The position numbers and the translations under genes are program-made. 64,000 nt of DNA from Haliovirga abyssi (GTDB lineage Bacteria; Fusobacteriota; Fusobacteriia; Fusobacteriales; Haliovirgaceae): positions 1,048,637 to 1,112,636 of the forward strand of contig NZ_AP027059.1 in assembly GCF_030295325.1 (NCBI RefSeq). Direction: 5' to 3'. The notes under the pieces were generated by a model. The model did not search any database. It was not told the DNA's origin and was given only the letters and a program-made list of their open reading frames with translations. Positions 29,629 to 40,724 of the stretch are shown piece by piece. Position 1 is the stretch's first letter, and each line of letters opens with the position of its first letter.

Positions 29629-30033
29629 ATGAATGAATTAATAATAGCGTGTGCTACAAATAATGGAGAAGAATTTGTAAATGATCATTTTGGTAGTGCA
29701 AATTATTTTGATATTTATAAAATGTCAAAAGAGAGCATTGAAAAAATAGATAGAGTAGATAATACAAGTGAAGAGGAAAAAGAGGATGATGGAATACATG
29801 GAGATCCAAATAAAGCCAAAGGAATATCTGGAATATTAAAAAAGAAAGATGTTCAAGTTGTAGTTGGTTATAAAATGGGACCAAATATCATTAGAATGAA
29901 GAAAAAATTTGTGCCTGTGATCGTTAGAAATATAAATATAAAAAATAGTTTAGAAATTGTAAAAAATAATTTTGATAAAATAGTTGAAGAATTAAATAAT
30001 GGTGAAAATAGAAAACATATAGTATTAGAATAG
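29629..30033 (+). CDS. NifX/NifB-like (FeMo-cofactor-binding fold) domain protein, third copy
   Basis: 134 aa; DHFGSANYFDIYK core motif. Confidence 0.7.
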   Translation: MNELIIACATNNGEEFVNDHFGSANYFDIYKMSKESIEKIDRVDNTSEEEKEDDGIHGDPNKAKGISGILKKKDVQVVVGYKMGPNIIRMKKKFVPVIVRNINIKNSLEIVKNNFDKIVEELNNGENRKHIVLE

Positions 30034-30057
30034 GACCTTTAGGGGTCCTATTTTTTT
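30031..30057 (+). terminator. rho-independent terminator TAGGACC-tttag-GGGTCCTA + T7
   Basis: Hairpin overlapping the stop codon of the NifX-like gene, followed by TTTTTTT. Confidence 0.8.
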
Positions 30058-30069
30058 AGGATAAAAAAA

Positions 30070-30098
30070 TTGATTTTTTATCCATGGTGTGATATAAT
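30070..30098 (+). promoter_or_regulatory. strong sigma70 promoter with extended -10 (TTGATT-17-TGaTATAAT) driving the NfeD/flotillin/giant ATPase operon through a ~220-nt leader
   Basis: -35 30070-30075, TG 30090-30091, -10 30093-30098. Confidence 0.65.
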
Positions 30099-30319
30099 GC
30101 AATGCATATTAACATTGGTATGAAATGGTTGAAAGAATATCTACTTAAGAATAAATTATAAATTTATTCAGGAAGTAAGTAATGCTATTTTTTTAACATT
30201 ATTTAGTAACAAATATCCAAACATTCTAATTTTTTTATAATCTTAATTTAATATAAAATTCTATTGATTAAAAAAATTAGGTGAAATAAAATATTAATTT
30301 TTAGAAAGGAGGTAAATAA

Positions 30320-30964
30320 ATGAACTATATAAAATACGCTTTTACTGGTATTAATATATTGCCATCAATATTTTTACTTATTATAATTTTTTATTGGTTA
30401 ATGACTATACTAGGATTTTTTTCAATTGATTCGGGACTGGATATTAATACAGATGCAAATTCTGATTTAGAGCTTAATTCTGAATTAGAAGGTGATATTA
30501 ATTTAGGAAATCTTTCAATAGCTAGTAAAATTTTTGAATTTTCAAATATGGGAGCAATGCCATTTATGGTCTATTCAACTTTCTATGTTATTGTCTTGTG
30601 GACATTATCAATGTTGACTTATTACATAAAAATATCGCAAAATATATTTATATCTTTAATAATTTTTATTATCAATTTCATCTTAACTTTTTTCTTAACT
30701 AAAATAATAACTCTTCCCTTAGTTAAATTTTTTAAATCTTTTAATATTGATGAAAAAAATAAGATAATTGGCTCTATATGTACATTAAAATCAACTATTG
30801 AAGGAGAACATATAGGATTAGCTGAAGTAGAAAATGATAAATATCCAATAGTAATAAATGTAAAAAGCCCAAATAAGAAAATAGAAAAAGGAGAACAGGC
30901 TATTGTAATATCAGAAGAAAATAACAATAATTTATATATAGTAGAAAAAAATAATTTTTTTTAG
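30320..30964 (+). CDS. NfeD-like (YqiJ/YuaF-type) membrane protein with C-terminal OB-fold-like domain
   Basis: 214 aa; N-terminal TM helices, acidic linker, C-terminal beta-rich soluble domain; immediately upstream of a flotillin gene. Confidence 0.6.
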   Translation: MNYIKYAFTGINILPSIFLLIIIFYWLMTILGFFSIDSGLDINTDANSDLELNSELEGDINLGNLSIASKIFEFSNMGAMPFMVYSTFYVIVLWTLSMLTYYIKISQNIFISLIIFIINFILTFFLTKIITLPLVKFFKSFNIDEKNKIIGSICTLKSTIEGEHIGLAEVENDKYPIVINVKSPNKKIEKGEQAIVISEENNNNLYIVEKNNFF

Positions 30965-30982
30965 AAAGGAGAATGGTTAGAA

Positions 30983-33019
30983 ATGATTGAGTTTATTTTG
31001 TATGTGGTAGGTATTGTAGTTTTTTTGTTATTCATTGGAATACCAATGATTTTAAGTATGTTTTATAAGAAGGTAGTTCAAGGGAAAACCATAGTTAGAA
31101 ATGGAATAGGAGGTTCAAAAGTTTCTTTTTCTGGAATATGGGTAATTCCTATATTGCATAAATTTGAAAAAATGGACATTTGTGTTAAAAGAGTAGAAAT
31201 TGCTAGAGAAGGTAAAGAGGGTTTGATTTGCAAGGATAATTTAAGGGCAGACATAAGAGTAGCTTTTTTTGTAAAAGTAAATCATACTGAAGAGGATGTT
31301 TTGAGGGTTGCTAAATCTTTAGGAACAGAAAAAGCGTCTGATACTGTAACTTTAATGGAGTTTTTTGATGCTAAATTTTCAGAAGCATTAAAAACAGTGG
31401 GTAAAAAATTTGATTTTGTGCAATTATATACTGAAAGAGATAAATTTAAAGATGAAATTTTACAAGTTATAGGTACTGACTTAAATGGATATATTTTGGA
31501 AGATGCTGCAATTGATTATTTGGAACAAACAGATATTAATTTATTAAATCCTGATAATGTGTTAGATGCAGAAGGGATTAAAAAAATAACAGATTTAACA
31601 GCGAAACAACTTGTAATGGCAAATCAAATAAAAAGAGACAAAGAAAAAACTATTGTAGAACAAGATGTAACTGCAAGAGAGGCTATATTAGAATTAGAAA
31701 AACAAAAATCTGAAGCAGAAGAAAAACAAAATAGAGAAATAGAAAATATTAAATCAAGAGAAAATGCTCAAATAAAAATAATTCAAGAAGAGGAAAAATT
31801 AAAATCAGAAAATGCAAGAATTAAAGTAGAGGAAGAATTAATGATTGCAGAAGAAAATAAAAATAGACAAATTATAATAGCACAAAAATCAAAAGAAGCT
31901 ACAGAAGCTGTAGAAACAGAAAGAGTTGAGAAACAAAGATTATTAGAAGCTACAGAAAAAGAAAAATTAGTTTCTTTAGCTCAAATTGAAAAAGATAAAA
32001 AGATAGAGACTGAAAATAAAAATATTAAAGAGATAATAAAAGATAGAGTTATAGTTGAAAAAAGTGTAGTAGAAGAAGAAGAAAAAATAAAGGATACTAA
32101 AGAACTAGCTGAAGCTAAAAGAAAAAAAGGTGTTAGCATTACTGCAGCAGAAGCTGATGCAGAGGTTCAAGGCATAGAAAAAGTAAAATCAGCAGAAGCA
32201 GAAAAAGAAAGTGCTACAATTTTAGCAGAAAAAGAAATTATAGTTGCAGATACAGAACTAAAAACGTCACATAAAAAAGCTGAAGCTACTAAAATATTAG
32301 CAGATGCTAAATCAGAAGAAGCAGCAATAGTAGGAATATCAGAAGCAAGAGTATTAAAAGCAAAAGCGGAAGCATATACAGCTGAAGGGCAATCAAAAGC
32401 TACAGTTATAAAATTAGAAGCTGAAGCTACAGCAAAATCGATAGAATTAAAAGGATTAGCTGAAGCTAAAACTACAAAAGAAAAAGCATTAGCTGAAGCA
32501 GAAGGGATAACTAAAAAAGCTGAAGCAATGAAAAAACTTGATTCTGTTGGAAAAGAACATGAAGAATTTAAATTAAAACTTAATAAGGAAAAAGAGGTAG
32601 AACTTGCTGAAATAAATATTCAAAAAGATGTTGCTGTATCACAAGCGGAAGTTGTAAAAGAAGGACTTAAAAATTCTAATATTGATATAGTTGGAGGAGA
32701 TACTATATTCTTTGATAAATTAGTAAAATCAATTACTTTAGGAAAACAAGTTGATAGAGTGATAGATAATTCGGATGTTTTAAAAAATATAAACGATACT
32801 TTTTTTGATGGAGATGCTGAAAATTTTAAAAAACAATTAAAATCATTTGTTTCTAATTTTAATTTAAATACAGAAGATGTTAAGAATCTTACTATATCAA
32901 GCGCTATATCTAAAATGATGAAAAATTCTCCAAATAAAAATGATTTTTTTAATGGTATTTTAGATAAAGTTAATAAAATAGGAATTGGAGATAAACTTGT
33001 CTCAACAATAATGGATTAG
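30983..33019 (+). CDS. flotillin-like SPFH/band-7 protein (YqiK/FloT family) with long Ala/Glu/Lys-rich coiled coil
   Basis: 678 aa; N-terminal TM, SPFH core (ICVKRVEIAREGKEGLICKDNLRADIRVAFFVKV), then ~350 aa EA/KA repeats. Confidence 0.85.
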   Translation: MIEFILYVVGIVVFLLFIGIPMILSMFYKKVVQGKTIVRNGIGGSKVSFSGIWVIPILHKFEKMDICVKRVEIAREGKEGLICKDNLRADIRVAFFVKVNHTEEDVLRVAKSLGTEKASDTVTLMEFFDAKFSEALKTVGKKFDFVQLYTERDKFKDEILQVIGTDLNGYILEDAAIDYLEQTDINLLNPDNVLDAEGIKKITDLTAKQLVMANQIKRDKEKTIVEQDVTAREAILELEKQKSEAEEKQNREIENIKSRENAQIKIIQEEEKLKSENARIKVEEELMIAEENKNRQIIIAQKSKEATEAVETERVEKQRLLEATEKEKLVSLAQIEKDKKIETENKNIKEIIKDRVIVEKSVVEEEEKIKDTKELAEAKRKKGVSITAAEADAEVQGIEKVKSAEAEKESATILAEKEIIVADTELKTSHKKAEATKILADAKSEEAAIVGISEARVLKAKAEAYTAEGQSKATVIKLEAEATAKSIELKGLAEAKTTKEKALAEAEGITKKAEAMKKLDSVGKEHEEFKLKLNKEKEVELAEINIQKDVAVSQAEVVKEGLKNSNIDIVGGDTIFFDKLVKSITLGKQVDRVIDNSDVLKNINDTFFDGDAENFKKQLKSFVSNFNLNTEDVKNLTISSAISKMMKNSPNKNDFFNGILDKVNKIGIGDKLVSTIMD

Positions 33020-33029
33020 GGTGATTAAA

Positions 33030-36000
33030 ATGGGAAATGTGGAAACTATAGAAAAAACAGAAGAAAAAAAAGGTTCTAAATTTGAAGCATATAATGTAAT
33101 TAGAAAAAGATTAGTAGAACAATCTAATGTTTTAAAAGATAAAATTGACAAATTGAATGTAGATAGAATTAAAATATTTGGAAAAATAGAAAATGGGATA
33201 AAAAAAACAGAGATGATTGTAACTGAAAATAGTTGTATTCCACGTGACATTGTTCCTATACAAAACAAATTAATTTTAGGATACAATGTTCAAATGGGAT
33301 TAAAAACAACAACAGATATTTCTGATATTTTTTCTATATATGAGTATAATGAAGACAGTTTAAAAAAAGTAGGATATGAATTAATAGATGACGATAAATT
33401 TAAAAAAGATTTAAAAGATTTATATAAGTATTATAAAGAGAGTTTCTTTGCAAAATTTTTTGAAAAAGAAAATATTTTACATATGGTTTTTCAAAATGGG
33501 AAAAATGAAGAGGATATAAAAAGTTTTAAATGGATTTTAACTTCTGAGAATAAATTTGTGTATCTTGGAAATAGATTTAGTCACGAAGTAGAATTTCCTA
33601 AACAGCAAGAATTAAATTGGATAAAAACTAAAAGAGAAGACCAGATATCTGGTCTTCACCCTCATATTTCGATAAACGATAAAATTTTTGTAGAGACCAT
33701 TGAAGGAGATTTAACTTTAAAAATAGAAAATAATACTGAAACAGGTAAAGGGATATACTCTGAAGAAGTTGAAAATTTAGATCAAAATTTAGATGATTCA
33801 GAAATATATTATGCTGAGGTAGGAAATTTAATATTATTAAAAATAAAACCTTATCAAGAGAAAACATTTAGAAATCTTGTCTTTAATGAAAAGACAAAAG
33901 AAGTCATTAAAGTTGATGGAATAGAAGAAGCTTGTGTTTTATTACCAGAAAATCAAGGAATAATTTTTCCAAATGGAAGTGTATTGCAATCTGGTGGTGG
34001 GAAAATATTTGATATTAATCATAAAAATATGGTGTTTGAAATTAAAAAATCTTCAAATAATGGAGAAGATTATCAATATATTTTTTATAATAAATCAAAC
34101 GGGGAATATTATATTTATAATTATAATATAATAAATCAAGAAATTATAAAGCCTGTAATTTGTAATGGATATTCTCATTTTAAAAATGGTGATATGATAG
34201 TTTTTAAAGAGGATAGTGAACCTAAAAGGAGTCACACAATACAAATATGGAAAACATCTTTTAGTGATGATAATAACATAGTTGATGAAGAAAATAAAAA
34301 TAATTTTTTATATAATCTTGGAAATAAAGAGATTGTAAAATTAATGGCAGATTGTCACTCTTTATATAAATTGATAAAAAAAGATGATAGTTATTATGGC
34401 TTATATATAGATATAAATAAAGAATCTGAAAAGATTAAAAACAATTATTTTTGGATTAATAAAAAAGAAGCTTATGGTATAAATTCTGTATTAGAAGATA
34501 TAAAAAAAGCTGCAGCAGTAGCAATAAATGAATTTGATAAAGTAGATAAAGAGAAAGAAAATAATAAAAACAGATTTAATTTGGTAAAAAGTAATGTTGA
34601 AAATATAATAAAAAACATAAAATATTCATCTTTTGAAACTATTTATGATTTTGTAAATATTTTAAATGACTTAAGAAAATCAAGAGGAGAAATTTCTAGT
34701 TTAAAAGAATTAAAATTTATAGAGATAAGCTCAATAAATAATTTAGAGAATGAAGTAAAAGAAAATAATTTGAAAATAGCAGAAAAATGTGTTGATTTCC
34801 TTATGGGAAAAGATAGTTTAAATCCTTATGTAGATAGTGTAAAAGAGATAGAAGAAAAATTAGATGATGTAAAAAAAGCAATTACAGGAAAAGAATTAAG
34901 TGAAAAAATAAATGAAGTTTCAGAAGAATTAGAGATTTTAATTAATGTAGTAAATAACTTAAAAATAGAAGATACTACAAAGAGCTCTGAAATTTTGGAT
35001 AAAATTTCTCTTTTATTTTCAAGATTAAATCAAAGTAAATCAAAACTGAATGGAATAGTAAAAAATCTTGGGAGTAAAGAAAAAAAAGGAGAATTTTTTT
35101 CTAAACTTAATTTATTAAGTCAATCAGTTTCTAATTTTTTAGAGATAGCAGATACTTCTGAAAAATTAAATAATTATCTTACTAAATTAATTGTTCAGCT
35201 AGATGAACTAGAGAGTAACTTTTCTGAATTTGAAGAGTTTATTCCTCAAATTACAGAAAAAAGAGAAGAGATAATATCAAGTTTTGAAACTAAGAAACAA
35301 CAAATAGTAGATAAAAAAAATAGAAAGATTGATTCTCTTTTTAAGGCATCAGAGAGAGTTTTGAAGGGTATAGAAAATAGAGTAAATGCTTTAGATAAGA
35401 TAGAAGATATTAATGAAATTTTCTCAGCTGATTTAATGATAGAAAAATTAAGAGATATAATTGATAAATTAACAGATTTAGGAGAAGGAAATAAAGCTGA
35501 CGGTTTAGAAAATAAAATTAAGGTTTTAAAAGAAAATAGTATAAAACAATTAAAAGACAAAAAAGAACTGTTTTTAGATAAAAATACTATTAAATTAGGT
35601 AATAATAATTTCTTGATTAATGATCAAAAAATAGAATTAGCTTTATTAAAAAAAGATGATGGCTTCTATTTTAATATTTCAGGAACAGATTTTTATGAAA
35701 AAATAGATAGTTCAAAAATTGAAAAATATAGAGATGTTTGGGAACAAGAGGTAATATCAGAAAACAAAGAAGTTTATAGAGCAGAATTTTTAGCGTATAA
35801 AATATTAAAAAAATATAAAATTAATGGTGAATTAGAAAAATTATATGCTATTCCAGAAGAAGATTTGAAAGATATAATTAAAAATTATATTTTAGATAAC
35901 TTTAAAGAATATTATGTTAAAGGAGTTCATGATGTTGATGGATTTTTAATTTTGAAAGAACTCTTAATTAAAGAGAAGGAGCTTGAACTAGGAGCATTTG

Positions 36001-37952
36001 ATCCAATTACTAGAGGCGCTGGAAATTTATTTTGGGAATATGGATTAGATAATAAGAATAAAGAAAAACTTTTAAAAAGATTAAAATCTATAAATCTAAT
36101 TAATAAATTTTCAAATAAGAATATTGAAAATGGATTTTTACCTGAATTAGAAGAAAGAATCGGAAAATTTGTTGAAGATAAAAAATGGATAAAATATAAT
36201 AATATAAAAGATATTGCTAATTATATTGCTAAAGAGATAGGCGCAAATAAATATTTTGTAATGAGTTTAGAAGCGAAAGATTTATATGAAGAGTTTATAA
36301 ATCATTTGAAAACTATAGGTGCAAAAAATATTTTTGATAAATCTTTAGAGGATTTAAAAGAGGATATCGAAGGTAAATATATTGTAATAAAAGAATGGAT
36401 AAATTCTTTTATTTTAAACACAGAAAAAAGTTTTGATAGTTTTATTTATGAGTTAATATCGATAATTATATTGGATAATTTTTCAAAAAGAAGAGTTTTA
36501 AAATTAGATACAGCAATAAAAATAAAAGGGTTAGTTGGACAACATAAATTTATAAATCAAACTAAATATGAGATTAATTATAATGATTTTATGTTAAAAT
36601 TAGAAAAATTTAATTCTATAAATGTACCTAAATTTATAGAATTTCAAAAATTAAAACAAGAAGAAATATCCCAAATGAAAGAAAAGTTAAAATTTGAAGA
36701 ATTTATGCCGAAGGTTTTACTTTCTTTTGTTAGAAATAAACTGATCGATAATGTTTATTTGCCATTAATAGGAAATAATTTAGCGAAACAAATAGGAGCG
36801 GCAGGAGCAAATAAAAGAACAGATAACATGGGAGTTTTATTATTAATATCTCCTCCTGGATATGGAAAAACTACATTAGTAGAATATATATCAAATAGAT
36901 TAAATATGTTAATGGTTAAGGTTAATTGTCCAACTATTGGAAATAGTGTAACTTCACTTGATCCAGAACAGGCAGATAATATAAATGCAAAAGAAGAGTT
37001 ACTAAAACTAAATATGGCGTTCGAAATAGGGAATAATATTATGATATATTTAGATGACATACAACATTCTAATCCTGAATTTTTGCAAAAATTTATATCT
37101 CTTTGCGATGGACAAAGGAAAATTGATGGAGTTTATAAAGGAAGAAGTAAAACTTATGATTTTAGAGGTAAAAAAGTTGCTGTAGTTATGGCAGGAAATC
37201 CATATACAGAAAGTGGAGCAAAATTTCAAATACCAGATATGCTTTCTAATAGAGCTGATGTTTATAATCTTGGAGATATGTTGAAAGAAAATGAAGAAGC
37301 GTTTAAATTAAGTTATGTAGAAAATGCAGTGACTTCTAATGTATATTTAAATAAAATTTATATGAAAGATTCTTCAAATATTTATAAATTAATAAAAGTA
37401 ATCGAAACAGGCAACAGAGATAATATAGAATTTAATGGAAATTATACAGAACAAGATATATCAGAAGCTTTAGAAGTTATGAAAAAAATGTTAAAAGTAA
37501 GAGATGAAGTTTTAAATGTAAATATGGAATATATATATTCTGCTTCACAAAGTGAAGAATATAGAGTAGAGCCATCTTTTAAATTACAAGGTTCTTATAG
37601 AAATATGAATAAAATTTCTGAGAAAATTATTCCAATAATGAATAATGATGAATTAAGAAAACTAATTGAAATAAGCTATGAAAATGATTCTCAAACATTA
37701 GCAACTGATTCTGAAGCGAGTATTTTAAAATTTAAAGAAATTACAGAAAGACTGAATGAAGATTCAAGTAGACGTTGGACAGAAATAAAGAATATGTATA
37801 TTAAAAATAAAACTAATGATGGCAGCGATAAAATTATATCTTTAACTAAAGCTATTCGTTCAATAGGTAGAAGTATTGACAGGTTAAAAAAAAATAAAAA
37901 ATATTCTAATGATTATAACAAGAAAAAAGATGACAGCAAAAATATAAGATAA
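33030..37952 (+). CDS. giant (1640 aa) protein with C-terminal AAA_5 (MoxR/McrB-like) ATPase domain, function unknown
   Basis: Walker A ISPPGYGKTTL, Walker B IMIYLDDIQH, sensor/Arg-finger VVMAGNPYTESGAKFQIPDMLSNRADVY around residues 1240-1420; preceding ~1200 aa not recognisable; SD in flotillin 3' end, ATG 33030 eleven nt after the flotillin stop. Confidence 0.75.
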   Translation: MGNVETIEKTEEKKGSKFEAYNVIRKRLVEQSNVLKDKIDKLNVDRIKIFGKIENGIKKTEMIVTENSCIPRDIVPIQNKLILGYNVQMGLKTTTDISDIFSIYEYNEDSLKKVGYELIDDDKFKKDLKDLYKYYKESFFAKFFEKENILHMVFQNGKNEEDIKSFKWILTSENKFVYLGNRFSHEVEFPKQQELNWIKTKREDQISGLHPHISINDKIFVETIEGDLTLKIENNTETGKGIYSEEVENLDQNLDDSEIYYAEVGNLILLKIKPYQEKTFRNLVFNEKTKEVIKVDGIEEACVLLPENQGIIFPNGSVLQSGGGKIFDINHKNMVFEIKKSSNNGEDYQYIFYNKSNGEYYIYNYNIINQEIIKPVICNGYSHFKNGDMIVFKEDSEPKRSHTIQIWKTSFSDDNNIVDEENKNNFLYNLGNKEIVKLMADCHSLYKLIKKDDSYYGLYIDINKESEKIKNNYFWINKKEAYGINSVLEDIKKAAAVAINEFDKVDKEKENNKNRFNLVKSNVENIIKNIKYSSFETIYDFVNILNDLRKSRGEISSLKELKFIEISSINNLENEVKENNLKIAEKCVDFLMGKDSLNPYVDSVKEIEEKLDDVKKAITGKELSEKINEVSEELEILINVVNNLKIEDTTKSSEILDKISLLFSRLNQSKSKLNGIVKNLGSKEKKGEFFSKLNLLSQSVSNFLEIADTSEKLNNYLTKLIVQLDELESNFSEFEEFIPQITEKREEIISSFETKKQQIVDKKNRKIDSLFKASERVLKGIENRVNALDKIEDINEIFSADLMIEKLRDIIDKLTDLGEGNKADGLENKIKVLKENSIKQLKDKKELFLDKNTIKLGNNNFLINDQKIELALLKKDDGFYFNISGTDFYEKIDSSKIEKYRDVWEQEVISENKEVYRAEFLAYKILKKYKINGELEKLYAIPEEDLKDIIKNYILDNFKEYYVKGVHDVDGFLILKELLIKEKELELGAFDPITRGAGNLFWEYGLDNKNKEKLLKRLKSINLINKFSNKNIENGFLPELEERIGKFVEDKKWIKYNNIKDIANYIAKEIGANKYFVMSLEAKDLYEEFINHLKTIGAKNIFDKSLEDLKEDIEGKYIVIKEWINSFILNTEKSFDSFIYELISIIILDNFSKRRVLKLDTAIKIKGLVGQHKFINQTKYEINYNDFMLKLEKFNSINVPKFIEFQKLKQEEISQMKEKLKFEEFMPKVLLSFVRNKLIDNVYLPLIGNNLAKQIGAAGANKRTDNMGVLLLISPPGYGKTTLVEYISNRLNMLMVKVNCPTIGNSVTSLDPEQADNINAKEELLKLNMAFEIGNNIMIYLDDIQHSNPEFLQKFISLCDGQRKIDGVYKGRSKTYDFRGKKVAVVMAGNPYTESGAKFQIPDMLSNRADVYNLGDMLKENEEAFKLSYVENAVTSNVYLNKIYMKDSSNIYKLIKVIETGNRDNIEFNGNYTEQDISEALEVMKKMLKVRDEVLNVNMEYIYSASQSEEYRVEPSFKLQGSYRNMNKISEKIIPIMNNDELRKLIEISYENDSQTLATDSEASILKFKEITERLNEDSSRRWTEIKNMYIKNKTNDGSDKIISLTKAIRSIGRSIDRLKKNKKYSNDYNKKKDDSKNIR

Positions 37953-37986
37953 ATATCTTTAATTATCAAATTTCAAAAATACCTAT

Positions 37987-38024
37987 CTCATAAAATAGTA
38001 ATAAATTTCTTGCTATTTTATGAG
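37987..38024 (+). terminator. 12-bp stem hairpin CTCATAAAATAG-(14)-CTATTTTATGAG after the giant ATPase gene
   Basis: Read directly, 35 nt downstream of stop. Confidence 0.55.
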
Positions 38025-38227
38025 GTAAAAATTGCTAAAAGACGGGTTTTCAATTTTATTTTTAAATACGTAATAGTTTAAGTTTTTTTATAAGAAAATA
38101 TGAGAAACATATCTTTCGAATATTCAGGATTGGTAACTTTTTCTAAATATATGGATAAATTTTTTAGTATCTCAATAGAAAATTTTATATACTTAATTAA
38201 TTGAAAACTATATATTAGTTTTAACAA

Positions 38228-38295
38228 TTGACATTTTAAAATCTATTGACATATTACTTCAATTATGATATACTTTGATTATCAAAGTAAAAGAT
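38228..38295 (+). promoter_or_regulatory. feo promoter: tandem TTGACA hexamers (38228, 38246), 17-nt spacer, TGaTATACT -10 (38266-38274), then near-palindrome CTTTGATTATCAAAG (Fur-box-like) at +1
   Basis: Hexamers and spacing read from sequence; TGATTATCA resembles the Fur-box GATAATGATAATCATTATC hexamer repeat. Confidence 0.55.
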
Positions 38296-38316
38296 ATCAG
38301 AATGGAGGAATATAAA

Positions 38317-38613
38317 ATGACAATATATCTAAACGAGCTGTTACCGGGTCAGTCTGCTTTCATAGTTGGAATTGAAGAAAATTCAACTTTAAGACAAAGA
38401 TTAATGGAACTTGGAGTTAGAGAAGGAAAGCAAGTTTTTATGAGAAGAAGAGCTCCGTTAGGAGATCCTATGGAAGTTAATGTTATGGGAACAAATCTAT
38501 CTATTAGAAAATCAGAAGCTAGATATGTAATGATAGATAAAGTGGTAACTTGCCCTGGAAATGGAAAAATGAGAGGGTTAGGCAAAGGATTAGGAAGGAG
38601 ACATAATAAATGA
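38317..38613 (+). CDS. feoA: ferrous iron transport protein A with Gly/Lys/Arg-rich C-terminal extension
   Basis: FeoA SH3-like motif LGVREGKQVFMRRRAPLGDPMEV; SD GGAGG 38304-38308; ATGA-coupled to feoB. Confidence 0.85.
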   Translation: MTIYLNELLPGQSAFIVGIEENSTLRQRLMELGVREGKQVFMRRRAPLGDPMEVNVMGTNLSIRKSEARYVMIDKVVTCPGNGKMRGLGKGLGRRHNK

Positions 38614-40724
38614 AAAAATTAAATGTAGCTTTATTAGGAAATCCTAATTGTGGGAAAACAACTTTATTTAATGCTCTAACAGGTGGGAAACAGCATGTAG
38701 GGAATTGGGCAGGAGTTACAGTAGAAAAAAAAGAAGGAGAATTTGAATATAATGGGCAACAAATTAATATAATAGATTTACCTGGAATTTATAGTTTATC
38801 AACAAAGACTATTGAAGAGAAAGTATCAAGAAATTATCTAATAGAAGAAAAACCAGATTTAGTAATAAATATAATTGATGGGACTAATCTTGAAAAAAGT
38901 CTTTATTTAACGACGCAATTAATGGAATTAGGTATAAAATTTATATTAGCTATAAATATGTATGATGAAGTAAAAAGCAAAGGAATAAAAATAGATATAA
39001 AAAAATTGTCAAAATTTTTAAATGTTCCTGTTATTCCAATAATTGCTAGGAATGAAACTGGAATAGATTTATTAAAAAGCAATATAACTTCTGAATCAAC
39101 CCTAAGTAAAGCCAAAGTAGGTTATGATGAAGATATAGAAAATGCAATAGAAAGCCTGTTAAAAATAATAAAAAAAGATAAAAAAATAGAAGAAAAAATT
39201 AATATAAGATGGCTAATTATAGAACTGTTAGAAGGAGATCCTAAAGCATTTGAAATGCTAAAAAATAGTATAGTATATGATGAAGTAAAAAATACATTAG
39301 ATGATAAGATTGAGTATGTAAAAAAAATATATAATGAAGAAATAAAAATTGTTATAATGGAAAAAAGATTTGGATTTATATTAGGATTGATAAAAGAGTG
39401 TGTAATTATTAGAAAAATGGATTTTTCAAAATTAGATATAACTGAAAAAATTGATAATATTATACTGAATAAATGGGTAGGATTGCCTCTGTTTTTATTT
39501 ATACTTTGGGGGACATTTAATCTAACATTTGTTTTTGGAAATTTTTTTAGTTCTTATATTAATGATGGAATAGTGTTACTTGGAAATTTTGTATCAAATG
39601 TATTGCCAAATGGAATATTAAAAGATATGCTAATAGATGGTGCAATTGGAGGAATGGGAGGAATTTTAGTATTTTTACCTCAAATTTTAATTTTATTTTT
39701 AGTTATAGCTTTATTAGAAGATTCAGGATATATGGCAAGAGTTGCATTTATAATGGATAAACTTATGCATTATTTAGGTTTGCATGGAAAATCCTTTATT
39801 TCGCTATTCATGGGATTTGGATGTAATGTACCAGGAATAATGGCTGCAAGAATACTAGAAAATGAAGATGATAGAATTGTAACTGCTTTAGTAAATCCAT
39901 TTATGAGTTGTTCTGCAAGACTGCCAATTTATATATTAGTAACAGGAATGTTTTTCAAAAAAAATGCAGGAAATGTTATTTTTTCTATATATCTTATTGG
40001 GATTATAGTAGCTATTTTTACTGCAAAGATGTTGAAAAAATTCTTTTTTAAAGGGTTATCAGTTCCTTTTGTAATGGAATTGCCGCCATATAGAGCTCCA
40101 ACTTTGAAATCTTTAATGATACATATGTGGGATAGAGCTTCAATGTTTTTGAAAAAAATGGGTGGAGTAATTTTAATAGGGGCATTAATAGTTTGGGCAT
40201 TAGGGTATTTTCCTATTAATAAAAATTATTCAAATAATATTGTTAAATTAGAGACTCAAGCTAGCAAAATTACAGATATTCAAAAAAAGAATGATTTATC
40301 AATGAAAATAGAGGATATGAAAAAAGTTGAAGATATGGAAAATAGTTATATGGGGAAAATTGGAAAAACAATAGAACCAGTATTTAAACCATTAGGAATA
40401 ACGTGGAGAGAAGGAGTTGCATTAATTGCAGGAATAACTGCAAAGGAAATTTTTGTTAGTACAATTTCTGTATTATATGGAGTAGGAGATGAAAATGCCA
40501 CTGGATTAAAGAGAAAAATGTTGAAAGATGGAATAACTCCAATAGCGGCTTATGGTTTAATGGTGTTTGTGCTGCTGTATATACCTTGTGTTGCAACAAT
40601 TGCAGCAATAAGAAGAGAAACTAATTCATTAAAATGGACTATATTCTCTGTTATATATGGTATTTCAATTGCATATGCACTTAGTTTTTTAATAAATACA
40701 ATTGGAAAATCTATATTTTATTAA
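38610..40724 (+). CDS. feoB: ferrous iron transporter B
   Basis: 704 aa; N-terminal G-protein domain LLGNPNCGKTTLFNALTG, gate motifs, C-terminal polytopic membrane domain. Confidence 0.95.
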   Translation: MKKLNVALLGNPNCGKTTLFNALTGGKQHVGNWAGVTVEKKEGEFEYNGQQINIIDLPGIYSLSTKTIEEKVSRNYLIEEKPDLVINIIDGTNLEKSLYLTTQLMELGIKFILAINMYDEVKSKGIKIDIKKLSKFLNVPVIPIIARNETGIDLLKSNITSESTLSKAKVGYDEDIENAIESLLKIIKKDKKIEEKINIRWLIIELLEGDPKAFEMLKNSIVYDEVKNTLDDKIEYVKKIYNEEIKIVIMEKRFGFILGLIKECVIIRKMDFSKLDITEKIDNIILNKWVGLPLFLFILWGTFNLTFVFGNFFSSYINDGIVLLGNFVSNVLPNGILKDMLIDGAIGGMGGILVFLPQILILFLVIALLEDSGYMARVAFIMDKLMHYLGLHGKSFISLFMGFGCNVPGIMAARILENEDDRIVTALVNPFMSCSARLPIYILVTGMFFKKNAGNVIFSIYLIGIIVAIFTAKMLKKFFFKGLSVPFVMELPPYRAPTLKSLMIHMWDRASMFLKKMGGVILIGALIVWALGYFPINKNYSNNIVKLETQASKITDIQKKNDLSMKIEDMKKVEDMENSYMGKIGKTIEPVFKPLGITWREGVALIAGITAKEIFVSTISVLYGVGDENATGLKRKMLKDGITPIAAYGLMVFVLLYIPCVATIAAIRRETNSLKWTIFSVIYGISIAYALSFLINTIGKSIFY

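Follow-up and report, generated by a model that had tools for sequence, protein, structure and literature searches.

The stretch of DNA analyzed here, referred to as the window, comprises 64,000 nucleotides (nt) from Haliovirga abyssi, a deep-sea member of the Fusobacteriota (contig NZ_AP027059.1 of assembly GCF_030295325.1, positions 1,048,637 to 1,112,636, forward strand); all coordinates without a locus name are positions in this window. It contains a unit of three co-oriented, tightly spaced genes (30320 to 37952, + strand) encoding a YqiJ-family protein, a YqiK-type flotillin, and a soluble protein of 1640 amino acids (aa), hereafter the giant protein. Judged from sequence comparison and gene order, the locus, with its three genes, represents the abbreviated form of the described PspA-CesT-flotillin-AAA+ system, of which bacABCDEF of Pseudomonas aeruginosa is an example. 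It therefore adds a member to an already described, mechanistically uncharacterized kind of system and is not a new kind of system. The function favored for the unit is that of a flotillin-centered envelope-stress module, in which the giant AAA+ ATPase would remodel the flotillin scaffold during membrane damage and repair, a reading to which we give a probability of about 55%.

Opinion is still divided on the function of bacterial flotillins. In this system, a single flotillin subfamily is tied, over a large part of the bacterial tree, to a very large and very conserved ATPase and is often joined by PspA, and the giant ATPase is an obvious handle for the mechanistic study of flotillin-dependent membrane repair. 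To what was already described, the present analysis adds a minimal example, with no PspA in the unit, from a deep-sea species of Fusobacteriota, and a sequence-level link between the operon of comparative genomics and the bac genes of P. aeruginosa (BacC, BacD, and BacE, with BacE as the DUF3686 ATPase). It also adds an argument that the database annotation of the giant protein as a DNA repair ATPase is probably misleading.

Identity and linkage of the three genes

An earlier reading of this stretch, made from the letters alone (the sequence-only reading), had proposed three tightly coupled open reading frames (ORFs) encoding an NfeD/YqiJ-like protein, a flotillin, and a large ATPase. The ORF calls agreed with this layout. 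The first gene (30320 to 30964, + strand) encodes a protein of 214 aa, predicted to be a multi-pass inner membrane protein of the NfeD-like YqiJ family, with 3 to 4 predicted transmembrane (TM) segments (residues 13 to 31, 82 to 100, and 109 to 138). When a profile of 27 orthologues of this protein was aligned with Escherichia coli YqiJ, hhalign returned a probability of 96.2% (E = 2e-9) over 189 columns, nearly the full length. The Pfam family YqiJ_N matched 10 of the 27 orthologues and Pfam NfeD, which represents the C-terminal OB-fold, matched only one (E = 0.005), the window copy not being among the matches in either case; PDB sequence and profile searches returned no relative. By homology, and by its position directly 5' of an SPFH gene, the first gene is assigned to the YqiJ family.

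The product of the second gene (30983 to 33019, + strand; 678 aa) is listed at NCBI as "flotillin family protein [Haliovirga abyssi]." Two comparisons linked it to E. coli YqiK: BLASTP gave 29% identity over 440 aa (E = 3e-46), and hhalign gave a probability of 100% (E = 2e-40), with the helical region aligned up to column 432. On this basis, it is classed as a YqiK-type SPFH/flotillin. Pfam Band_7 did not score the window flotillin and matched 5 of 28 orthologues (best E = 3e-13), and NCBIfam FloT gave a weak match at residues 415 to 520. A PDB sequence search found no relative at E ≤ 1, and the best match of a PDB profile search was QmcA at E = 0.54. From its N terminus, the protein comprises a TM anchor, the SPFH domain, an extended helical stretch rich in Ala, Glu, and Lys, and a C-terminal tail. 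The single N-terminal TM segment (residues 5 to 23) is followed by Lys residues, and the bulk of the protein is therefore predicted to be cytoplasmic. It is 125 aa longer than YqiK, and the additional C-terminal part is conserved inside the subfamily to about residue 600.

The third gene (33030 to 37952, + strand, from the ATG) encodes the giant protein, which was 100% identical to the 1640-aa NCBI entry "DNA repair ATPase [Haliovirga abyssi]." An in-frame GTG at 33021 would give an alternative product of 1643 aa; the NCBI protein has 1640. No TM segment was predicted. The sequence-only reading had seen a C-terminal AAA_5-type P-loop as the only recognizable module and about 450 N-terminal residues that matched nothing. 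The P-loop module was confirmed by Pfam, but the remainder of that description was overturned, as two further families matched strongly: DUF3686 (PF12458) at aa 35 to 474 (33132 to 34451, + strand; E = 7e-163) and DUF7902 (PF25472) at aa 595 to 675 (34812 to 35054, + strand; E = 1e-21), the latter inside the Lys/Glu-rich helical middle. Profile searches thus placed the giant protein in named families, although not in families of characterized function. The AAA+ core, at aa ~1266 to 1420 (36825 to 37289, + strand), was delimited from Pfam and from invariant columns and includes Walker A, a Walker B with DD, an AGNP sensor-1, and an NRAD arginine. Pfam AAA (PF00004), AAA_5, and AAA_22 matched residues 1266 to 1394 just above or at threshold (~1e-5). 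The motifs noted earlier, namely, Walker A SPPGYGKTT, Walker B YLDDIQH, and AGNPYTE...NRAD, were all present and were invariant across 16 homologues.

Conservation along the giant protein was highest in the AAA+ core (~80% identity across phyla), second highest in the propeller, and lowest at residues 921 to 1200. The propeller was recognized from a confident structural model of the N-terminal part, in which a long N-terminal helix and C-terminal helices are predicted to bundle around a beta-propeller-like core (aa ~56 to 408). The model of residues 850 to 1640 was of moderate confidence, with a predicted local distance difference test score (pLDDT) of 75.8 and a predicted template modeling score (pTM) of 0.44, and suggests, besides the AAA+ module, one helical domain and one small domain of beta structure. 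The nearest solved folds that Foldseek gave for this C-terminal model were those of Skd3/ClpB, ClpA, RuvB, ClpX, Lon, and MCM, all at no better than E~1e-4, and MoxR was not among the top matches.

Full-length homologues of the giant protein number in the thousands and share its domain architecture. Among the first 8000 candidates scored, 2056 proteins were found at E ≤ 1e-3, and a second search, seeded with a Pseudomonas homologue, found 5870 proteins at E ≤ 1e-10. At 50% identity, the family amounts to only a few hundred clusters; a search of 1.84 billion representatives yielded 320 of them at E ≤ 1e-30. The 120 best homologues had the same DUF3686-DUF7902-AAA+ architecture. The full-length members listed were of 1541 to 2036 aa, with DUF3686 beginning within about the first 50 residues.

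To examine the gene neighborhood, genomes were scanned at one per species, which gave at least 594 stretches encoding a relative of the giant protein; 80 loci were kept for counting. Of these, 68 had a flotillin gene 5' of the giant gene and in the same orientation, and the flotillin-linked loci represented at least seven phyla (Bacillota, Bacteroidota, Planctomycetota, Verrucomicrobiota, Desulfobacterota, Omnitrophota, and Kiritimatiellota). A YqiJ-like gene was found 5' of the flotillin gene in 51 of the 80 loci by tblastn and in 53 by clustering. In nine of the 12 loci without flotillin, the upstream sequence extends no further than about 1.5 kb. The trio was also found in the same order on plasmids of Pseudomonas fluorescens (pQBR103) and Streptomyces. 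Because the order of the YqiJ, flotillin, and giant genes is kept across so many phyla, the linkage is not due to chance, and by this comparison the three genes form one conserved unit. The sequence-only reading had asked whether the giant gene follows flotillin and NfeD genes or lies in defense islands; these counts point to the former, and no defense context emerged.

The unit is compact in H. abyssi, with 18 nt between the first two genes and 10 nt between the flotillin stop codon (TAG, 33017 to 33019) and the giant ATG (33030). A Shine-Dalgarno-like run precedes each start, and that of the giant gene, GGGTGA, overlaps the flotillin stop codon, in line with its earlier placement inside the flotillin 3' end. 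Across the loci, the TM protein and flotillin genes were separated by a median of 15 nt and the flotillin and giant genes by a median of 122 nt. Nonhomologous small ORFs of 60 to 290 aa lay between the latter two genes in 23 of 63 loci, mostly of Bacteroidota (for example, L024:6594-7680, L055:6504-7928, and L044:6603-7769). They were considered as a fourth component and rejected, as they are not conserved. The flotillin-giant junction seems to tolerate or attract insertions, while the YqiJ-flotillin junction remains tight. In one Rubripirellula metagenome-assembled genome (L060:8001-12881), the giant gene was split into ORFs of 776 and 887 aa, through a frameshift, a pseudogene, or an assembly error.

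Counterparts in Pseudomonas aeruginosa and other bacteria

The sequence-only reading had ranked the locus as a candidate for an undescribed system. This did not hold, since Ravi et al. (mSystems 2024, PMC11237479) described an operon that combines CesT/Tir and PspA with a band-7/flotillin protein, a YqiJ/YuaF-type three-TM protein, and an AAA+ ATPase, and also reported abbreviated operons, comprising flotillin, YqiJ/YuaF, and sometimes the ATPase, as more widely distributed. Their description was made purely by comparative genomics, and the window copy is a Fusobacteriota example of it in a housekeeping context. In P. aeruginosa, bacABCDEF (PA3732-PA3727; Mace 2008, PMC2587700; PMC10948618, 2024) has been studied by phenotype and transcript, and the authors of PMC10948618 equate it with the six-gene operon of Ravi et al.

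To relate the bac genes to the trio, the gene order on a P. aeruginosa contig (L083) was determined and found to be DUF2170, PspA, a protein of 213 aa, a protein of 688 aa, the DUF3686 giant, PLDc_2, YaeQ, RecJ, and an M4 peptidase. Of the 10 published bac reverse transcription-PCR primers, nine matched exactly at the expected gene junctions on this contig. On the strength of these primer positions, BacE (PA14_16190, taken as PA3728 from the gene order) is identified as the DUF3686 ATPase. The remaining primer, 16180/90_R, had no exact match in the L083 strain, and the amplicon sizes calculated from the primer positions on L083 (about 176 to 670 bp) differ from those in Table S1 of PMC10948618.

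By the same mapping, BacC, BacD, and BacE (PA3730-PA3728) are the counterparts of the window trio: a TM protein of 213 aa, a flotillin-like protein of 688 aa, and a DUF3686 AAA+ protein of 1746 aa, in the same order and orientation. The window flotillin was 41.9% identical to BacD (E = 3e-157), and the giant protein was 35.4% identical to BacE over 1629 aa; both similarities span the full length, and the two pairs are taken as orthologues. The first gene showed no BLASTP similarity to BacC at E ≤ 1e-3, and its assignment is by position, size, and family profile only. Three bac genes have no equivalent beside the window trio, namely, those for BacA (DUF2170/YjfI, CesT-like), BacB (PspA), and BacF (PLD). 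The window locus is considered the abbreviated form because no PspA or CesT homologue was found in the window and no PLD gene adjoins the trio; directly downstream, FeoA and FeoB are encoded instead of a PLD (HKD) hydrolase.

In other lineages, the trio is joined by genes for CesT/YjfI-like proteins and PspA and, in some cases, for a PLD hydrolase. In about 20 Bacteroidota loci, genes for a CesT_Tir_1/YbjN-like protein (E = 4e-54) and for PspA/IM30 (E = 4e-41) lie directly upstream of the trio, and the Dokdonia entry in Table S3 of Ravi et al. has exactly the Bacteroidota gene order seen here. The same loci carry a divergent regulator with HTH_3 and Peptidase_S24 domains, resembling LexA and phage repressors (e.g., L013:1920-2717, − strand). 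This suggests control by a self-cleaving repressor in Bacteroidota, unlike the sigma-54 promoter proposed for P. aeruginosa. On the 425-kb megaplasmid pQBR103 of P. fluorescens SBW25 (L081, 84461 to 105326), the trio ends a single co-oriented, partly polyamine-related block in which it is preceded by YjfI, PspA, rhomboid, DUF2491, DUF350, DUF1190, and glutathionylspermidine synthase genes; this block merges two PspA contexts that were kept separate by Ravi et al. Among the 131 immediate non-core neighbors of the 80 loci, the only recurrent Pfam families were DUF4178, PspA_IM30, Phage_CP76, and PLDc_2.

The pairing of the first two genes is also known without the third. The YqiJ-YqiK genes of E. 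coli and the YuaF-FloT genes of Bacillus subtilis are homologous to the first two genes and are as tightly paired, but neither operon includes a giant ATPase; downstream of yqiK in E. coli K-12 lies sibD/ibsD.

Proposed function and competing readings

The functional reading draws on the P. aeruginosa genes, which are co-transcribed, co-regulated, and induced by envelope insults (and, for PA3728-PA3732, by phage infection), and on the PspA, DUF4178, and PLD families that recur beside the trio in other loci. All six bac genes form one transcript, and BacB to BacF are upregulated together, by 6- to 13-fold, in a bacA mutant (PMC10948618). PA3731 (BacB) accumulates after osmotic shock and is induced by staphylococcal phenol-soluble modulin (PSM) cytotoxins, and mutation of its gene impairs both biofilm formation and virulence. 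For isolates from cystic fibrosis, PMC8190622 lists PA3728 as recurrently mutated across three independent studies. The eLife 2022 Arc paper was considered as a further source and rejected, as PA3729 appears there only as immunoprecipitation background.

In the proposed mechanism, the flotillin, held by its N-terminal TM anchor, would form a large oligomeric scaffold on the inner membrane face around the YqiJ-type partner. The soluble giant protein would assemble into an AAA+ ring, presumably hexameric, with each subunit bearing its beta-propeller at the tip of a long helical arm. The propellers would dock on the flotillin assembly, and also on PspA polymers where these are present, and ATP hydrolysis would serve to assemble, remodel, or disassemble the scaffold during membrane damage and repair. 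By functional analogy, the giant protein might act on its scaffold as Vps4 does on ESCRT-III or as FtsH does inside the HflK/C cage. The likeness would lie in combining a ring-forming AAA+ ATPase with a polymeric scaffold bound to the membrane (ESCRT-III/PspA or an SPFH cage), and PspA, which belongs to the ESCRT-III superfamily, adjoins the trio in many lineages, a point that bears on the comparison with ESCRT-III/Vps4. The giant protein nevertheless has no sequence relationship or specific fold relationship to Vps4 or FtsH and no MIT or protease domain, and neither ESCRT-III/Vps4 nor HflK/C-FtsH has anything that corresponds to its N-terminal propeller or its helical arm of roughly 700 aa.

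A more daring version of this mechanism, which we advance only tentatively and consider clearly less probable than the envelope-stress reading itself, is that the trio alone constitutes a self-sufficient, ATP-driven flotillin machine, whose propeller-tipped arms would build or strip the flotillin cage without PspA. If so, it would be the first dedicated energy-consuming remodeler of an SPFH scaffold and, in its logic, a bacterial counterpart to ESCRT-III/Vps4.

Several observations weigh against a scaffold-remodeling envelope-stress module. Three loci (L028, L040, and L069) have a full-length giant gene and ~8 kb of upstream sequence with no flotillin or YqiJ gene nearby; they come from Desulfobacteraceae, Cytophagaceae, and Bacteroidia, and their partners, if any, would be encoded elsewhere. 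A search of the 64-kb window by tblastn gave no PspA or CesT homologue (best E = 0.076), the rest of the genome not having been searched. The P. aeruginosa phenotypes (biofilm, rhamnolipid, and virulence) were obtained with bacA and bacB mutants, not with bacE mutants. All matches from the fold searches were generic, to AAA+ and propeller folds. As read from the sequence, the segment between Walker A and Walker B shows no obvious aromatic pore loop, and Walker B has DD, not DE; therefore, threading of substrates as by Vps4 or Clp is not assured. No literature was found on the biochemical activity of the giant ATPase.

The alternative that survives best, although we think it unlikely, is that the giant protein is a MoxR-like chaperone, acting in the assembly or quality control of client membrane proteins or complexes within a flotillin microdomain rather than as a remodeler of the scaffold. 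Its action would then resemble that of FtsH within HflK/C or of MoxR ATPases in the maturation of complexes. The AAA_5 match spans nearly the whole profile (positions 2 to 126 of 139) and exceeds the gathering score (25.7 bits against a cut-off of 22), with similar scores for PF00004 and AAA_22. The DDIQH...AGNPYTE...NRAD pattern is one that we take to be like that of MoxR-type ATPases, and beta-propellers are typically platforms for binding clients or peptides. The band-7, CesT, and AAA+ partners were moreover read as chaperone-like assembly factors by Ravi et al. (PMC11237479). However, the VWA/MIDAS partner typical of MoxR systems is not in the conserved neighborhood, with no VWA family among the recurrent neighbors of the 80 loci, and no client was identifiable. 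The strict pairing with one flotillin subfamily, and not with any enzyme, suggests instead that the scaffold itself is the partner, as the envelope-stress reading has it.

A role in anti-phage defense or abortive infection, in which the membrane scaffold would sense infection and the large NTPase would execute the response, is less probable still. That a scaffold combined with a large NTPase is an architecture known from defense systems had been pointed out by the sequence-only reading. PADLOC returned no hit for any of the three proteins, and the window locus is not in a defense island; its neighbors are housekeeping genes, for Fe-S/MinD-like, MFS, and Nitro_FeMo-Co proteins upstream, for FeoA and FeoB downstream, and also for Bmp. 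Around the 80 loci, hits to defense models were scattered: fewer than about 10 of the 131 neighbors matched, among them a TIR protein, Mko, and Dpd, and several of the matches were to generic PLD or cysteine-desulfurase folds. The presence of copies on megaplasmids favors a defense role, as does the membership of PA3728-PA3732 in a set of just 17 P. aeruginosa genes that were induced in every phage-infected sample (PMC12041424), but induction by phage is also the defining trait of phage-shock, i.e., envelope-stress, genes. Moreover, at 40 to 60% identity over 1600 aa between phyla, the giant proteins are conserved to a degree unusual for defense genes, and at 90% identity the P. aeruginosa giant (P0123, likewise named a DNA repair ATPase) forms a single cluster of 3222 sequences, the pattern that a core gene would show.

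The name "DNA repair ATPase" appears, from the comparisons made here, to rest on RuvB-like P-loop similarity over only ~70 residues. In PDB profile searches, the match was confined to ~70 residues around the P-loop, with RuvB, NVL, Rix7, p97, and Rpt3 at E ≥ 0.003. The likeness to RuvB itself was limited to ~45 to 70 residues (within ~1241 to 1316; E ≥ 0.003), and the NCBIfam RuvB model gave 21 bits against a cut-off of 282. The contextual signals all point to the membrane, and the name is probably a propagated misannotation; Pfam likewise describes DUF3686 as "ATPase involved in DNA repair." That the giant protein is nonetheless a DNA repair ATPase with an incidental flotillin neighbor is very improbable: the database name and Pfam description, the rank of RuvB as the best PDB sequence match, and recJ two genes downstream in P. 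aeruginosa speak for it, but the RuvB similarity does not extend beyond the P-loop surroundings, domain-library scans found no DNA-binding or nuclease domain, no paper naming DUF3686 or PF12458 turned up in the literature library searched, and the flotillin/YqiJ linkage across phyla is incompatible with chance, so that the synteny largely refutes it.

Transcription signals and flanking genes

The 5' boundary of the unit is set by the intrinsic terminator of the upstream gene (30030 to 30058, + strand), recognized from its fold and sequence as a 9-bp GC-rich stem followed by U7. Downstream of it lies a sigma-70-like promoter candidate (30070 to 30098, + strand; TTGATT-17-TATAAT) with an upstream TG forming an extended −10 element and a match of 10/12. 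The extended −10 promoter claimed by the sequence-only reading is thus present as a site, but the region is AT rich and shows no enrichment of sites of this kind (78 against 63±8 expected), and for this reason it is regarded as only a plausible start of the operon. It also differs in type from the sigma-54 promoter proposed for bac. The AT-rich 5' leader of ~220 nt (30105 to 30319, + strand) yielded neither an Rfam match nor a small ORF, and its fold was not significant (z = −0.69).

At the 3' end, a 12-bp hairpin had been described at 37987 to 38024. The hairpin is real and larger than stated, having an 18-bp AT-rich stem (37984 to 38027, + strand) that begins 32 nt past the giant stop codon and is followed by no U tract. 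None of 200 shuffled sequences folded as well (z = −4.96), and the hairpin is probably the 3' end of the transcript or a stabilizer of it. The genes flanking the operon on both sides serve metal and redox housekeeping. Two promoter-like sites close to consensus (TTGACA-17-TATACT with TG), which overlap each other at 38228 to 38274, precede the next unit, feoA-feoB (38275 to 40724).

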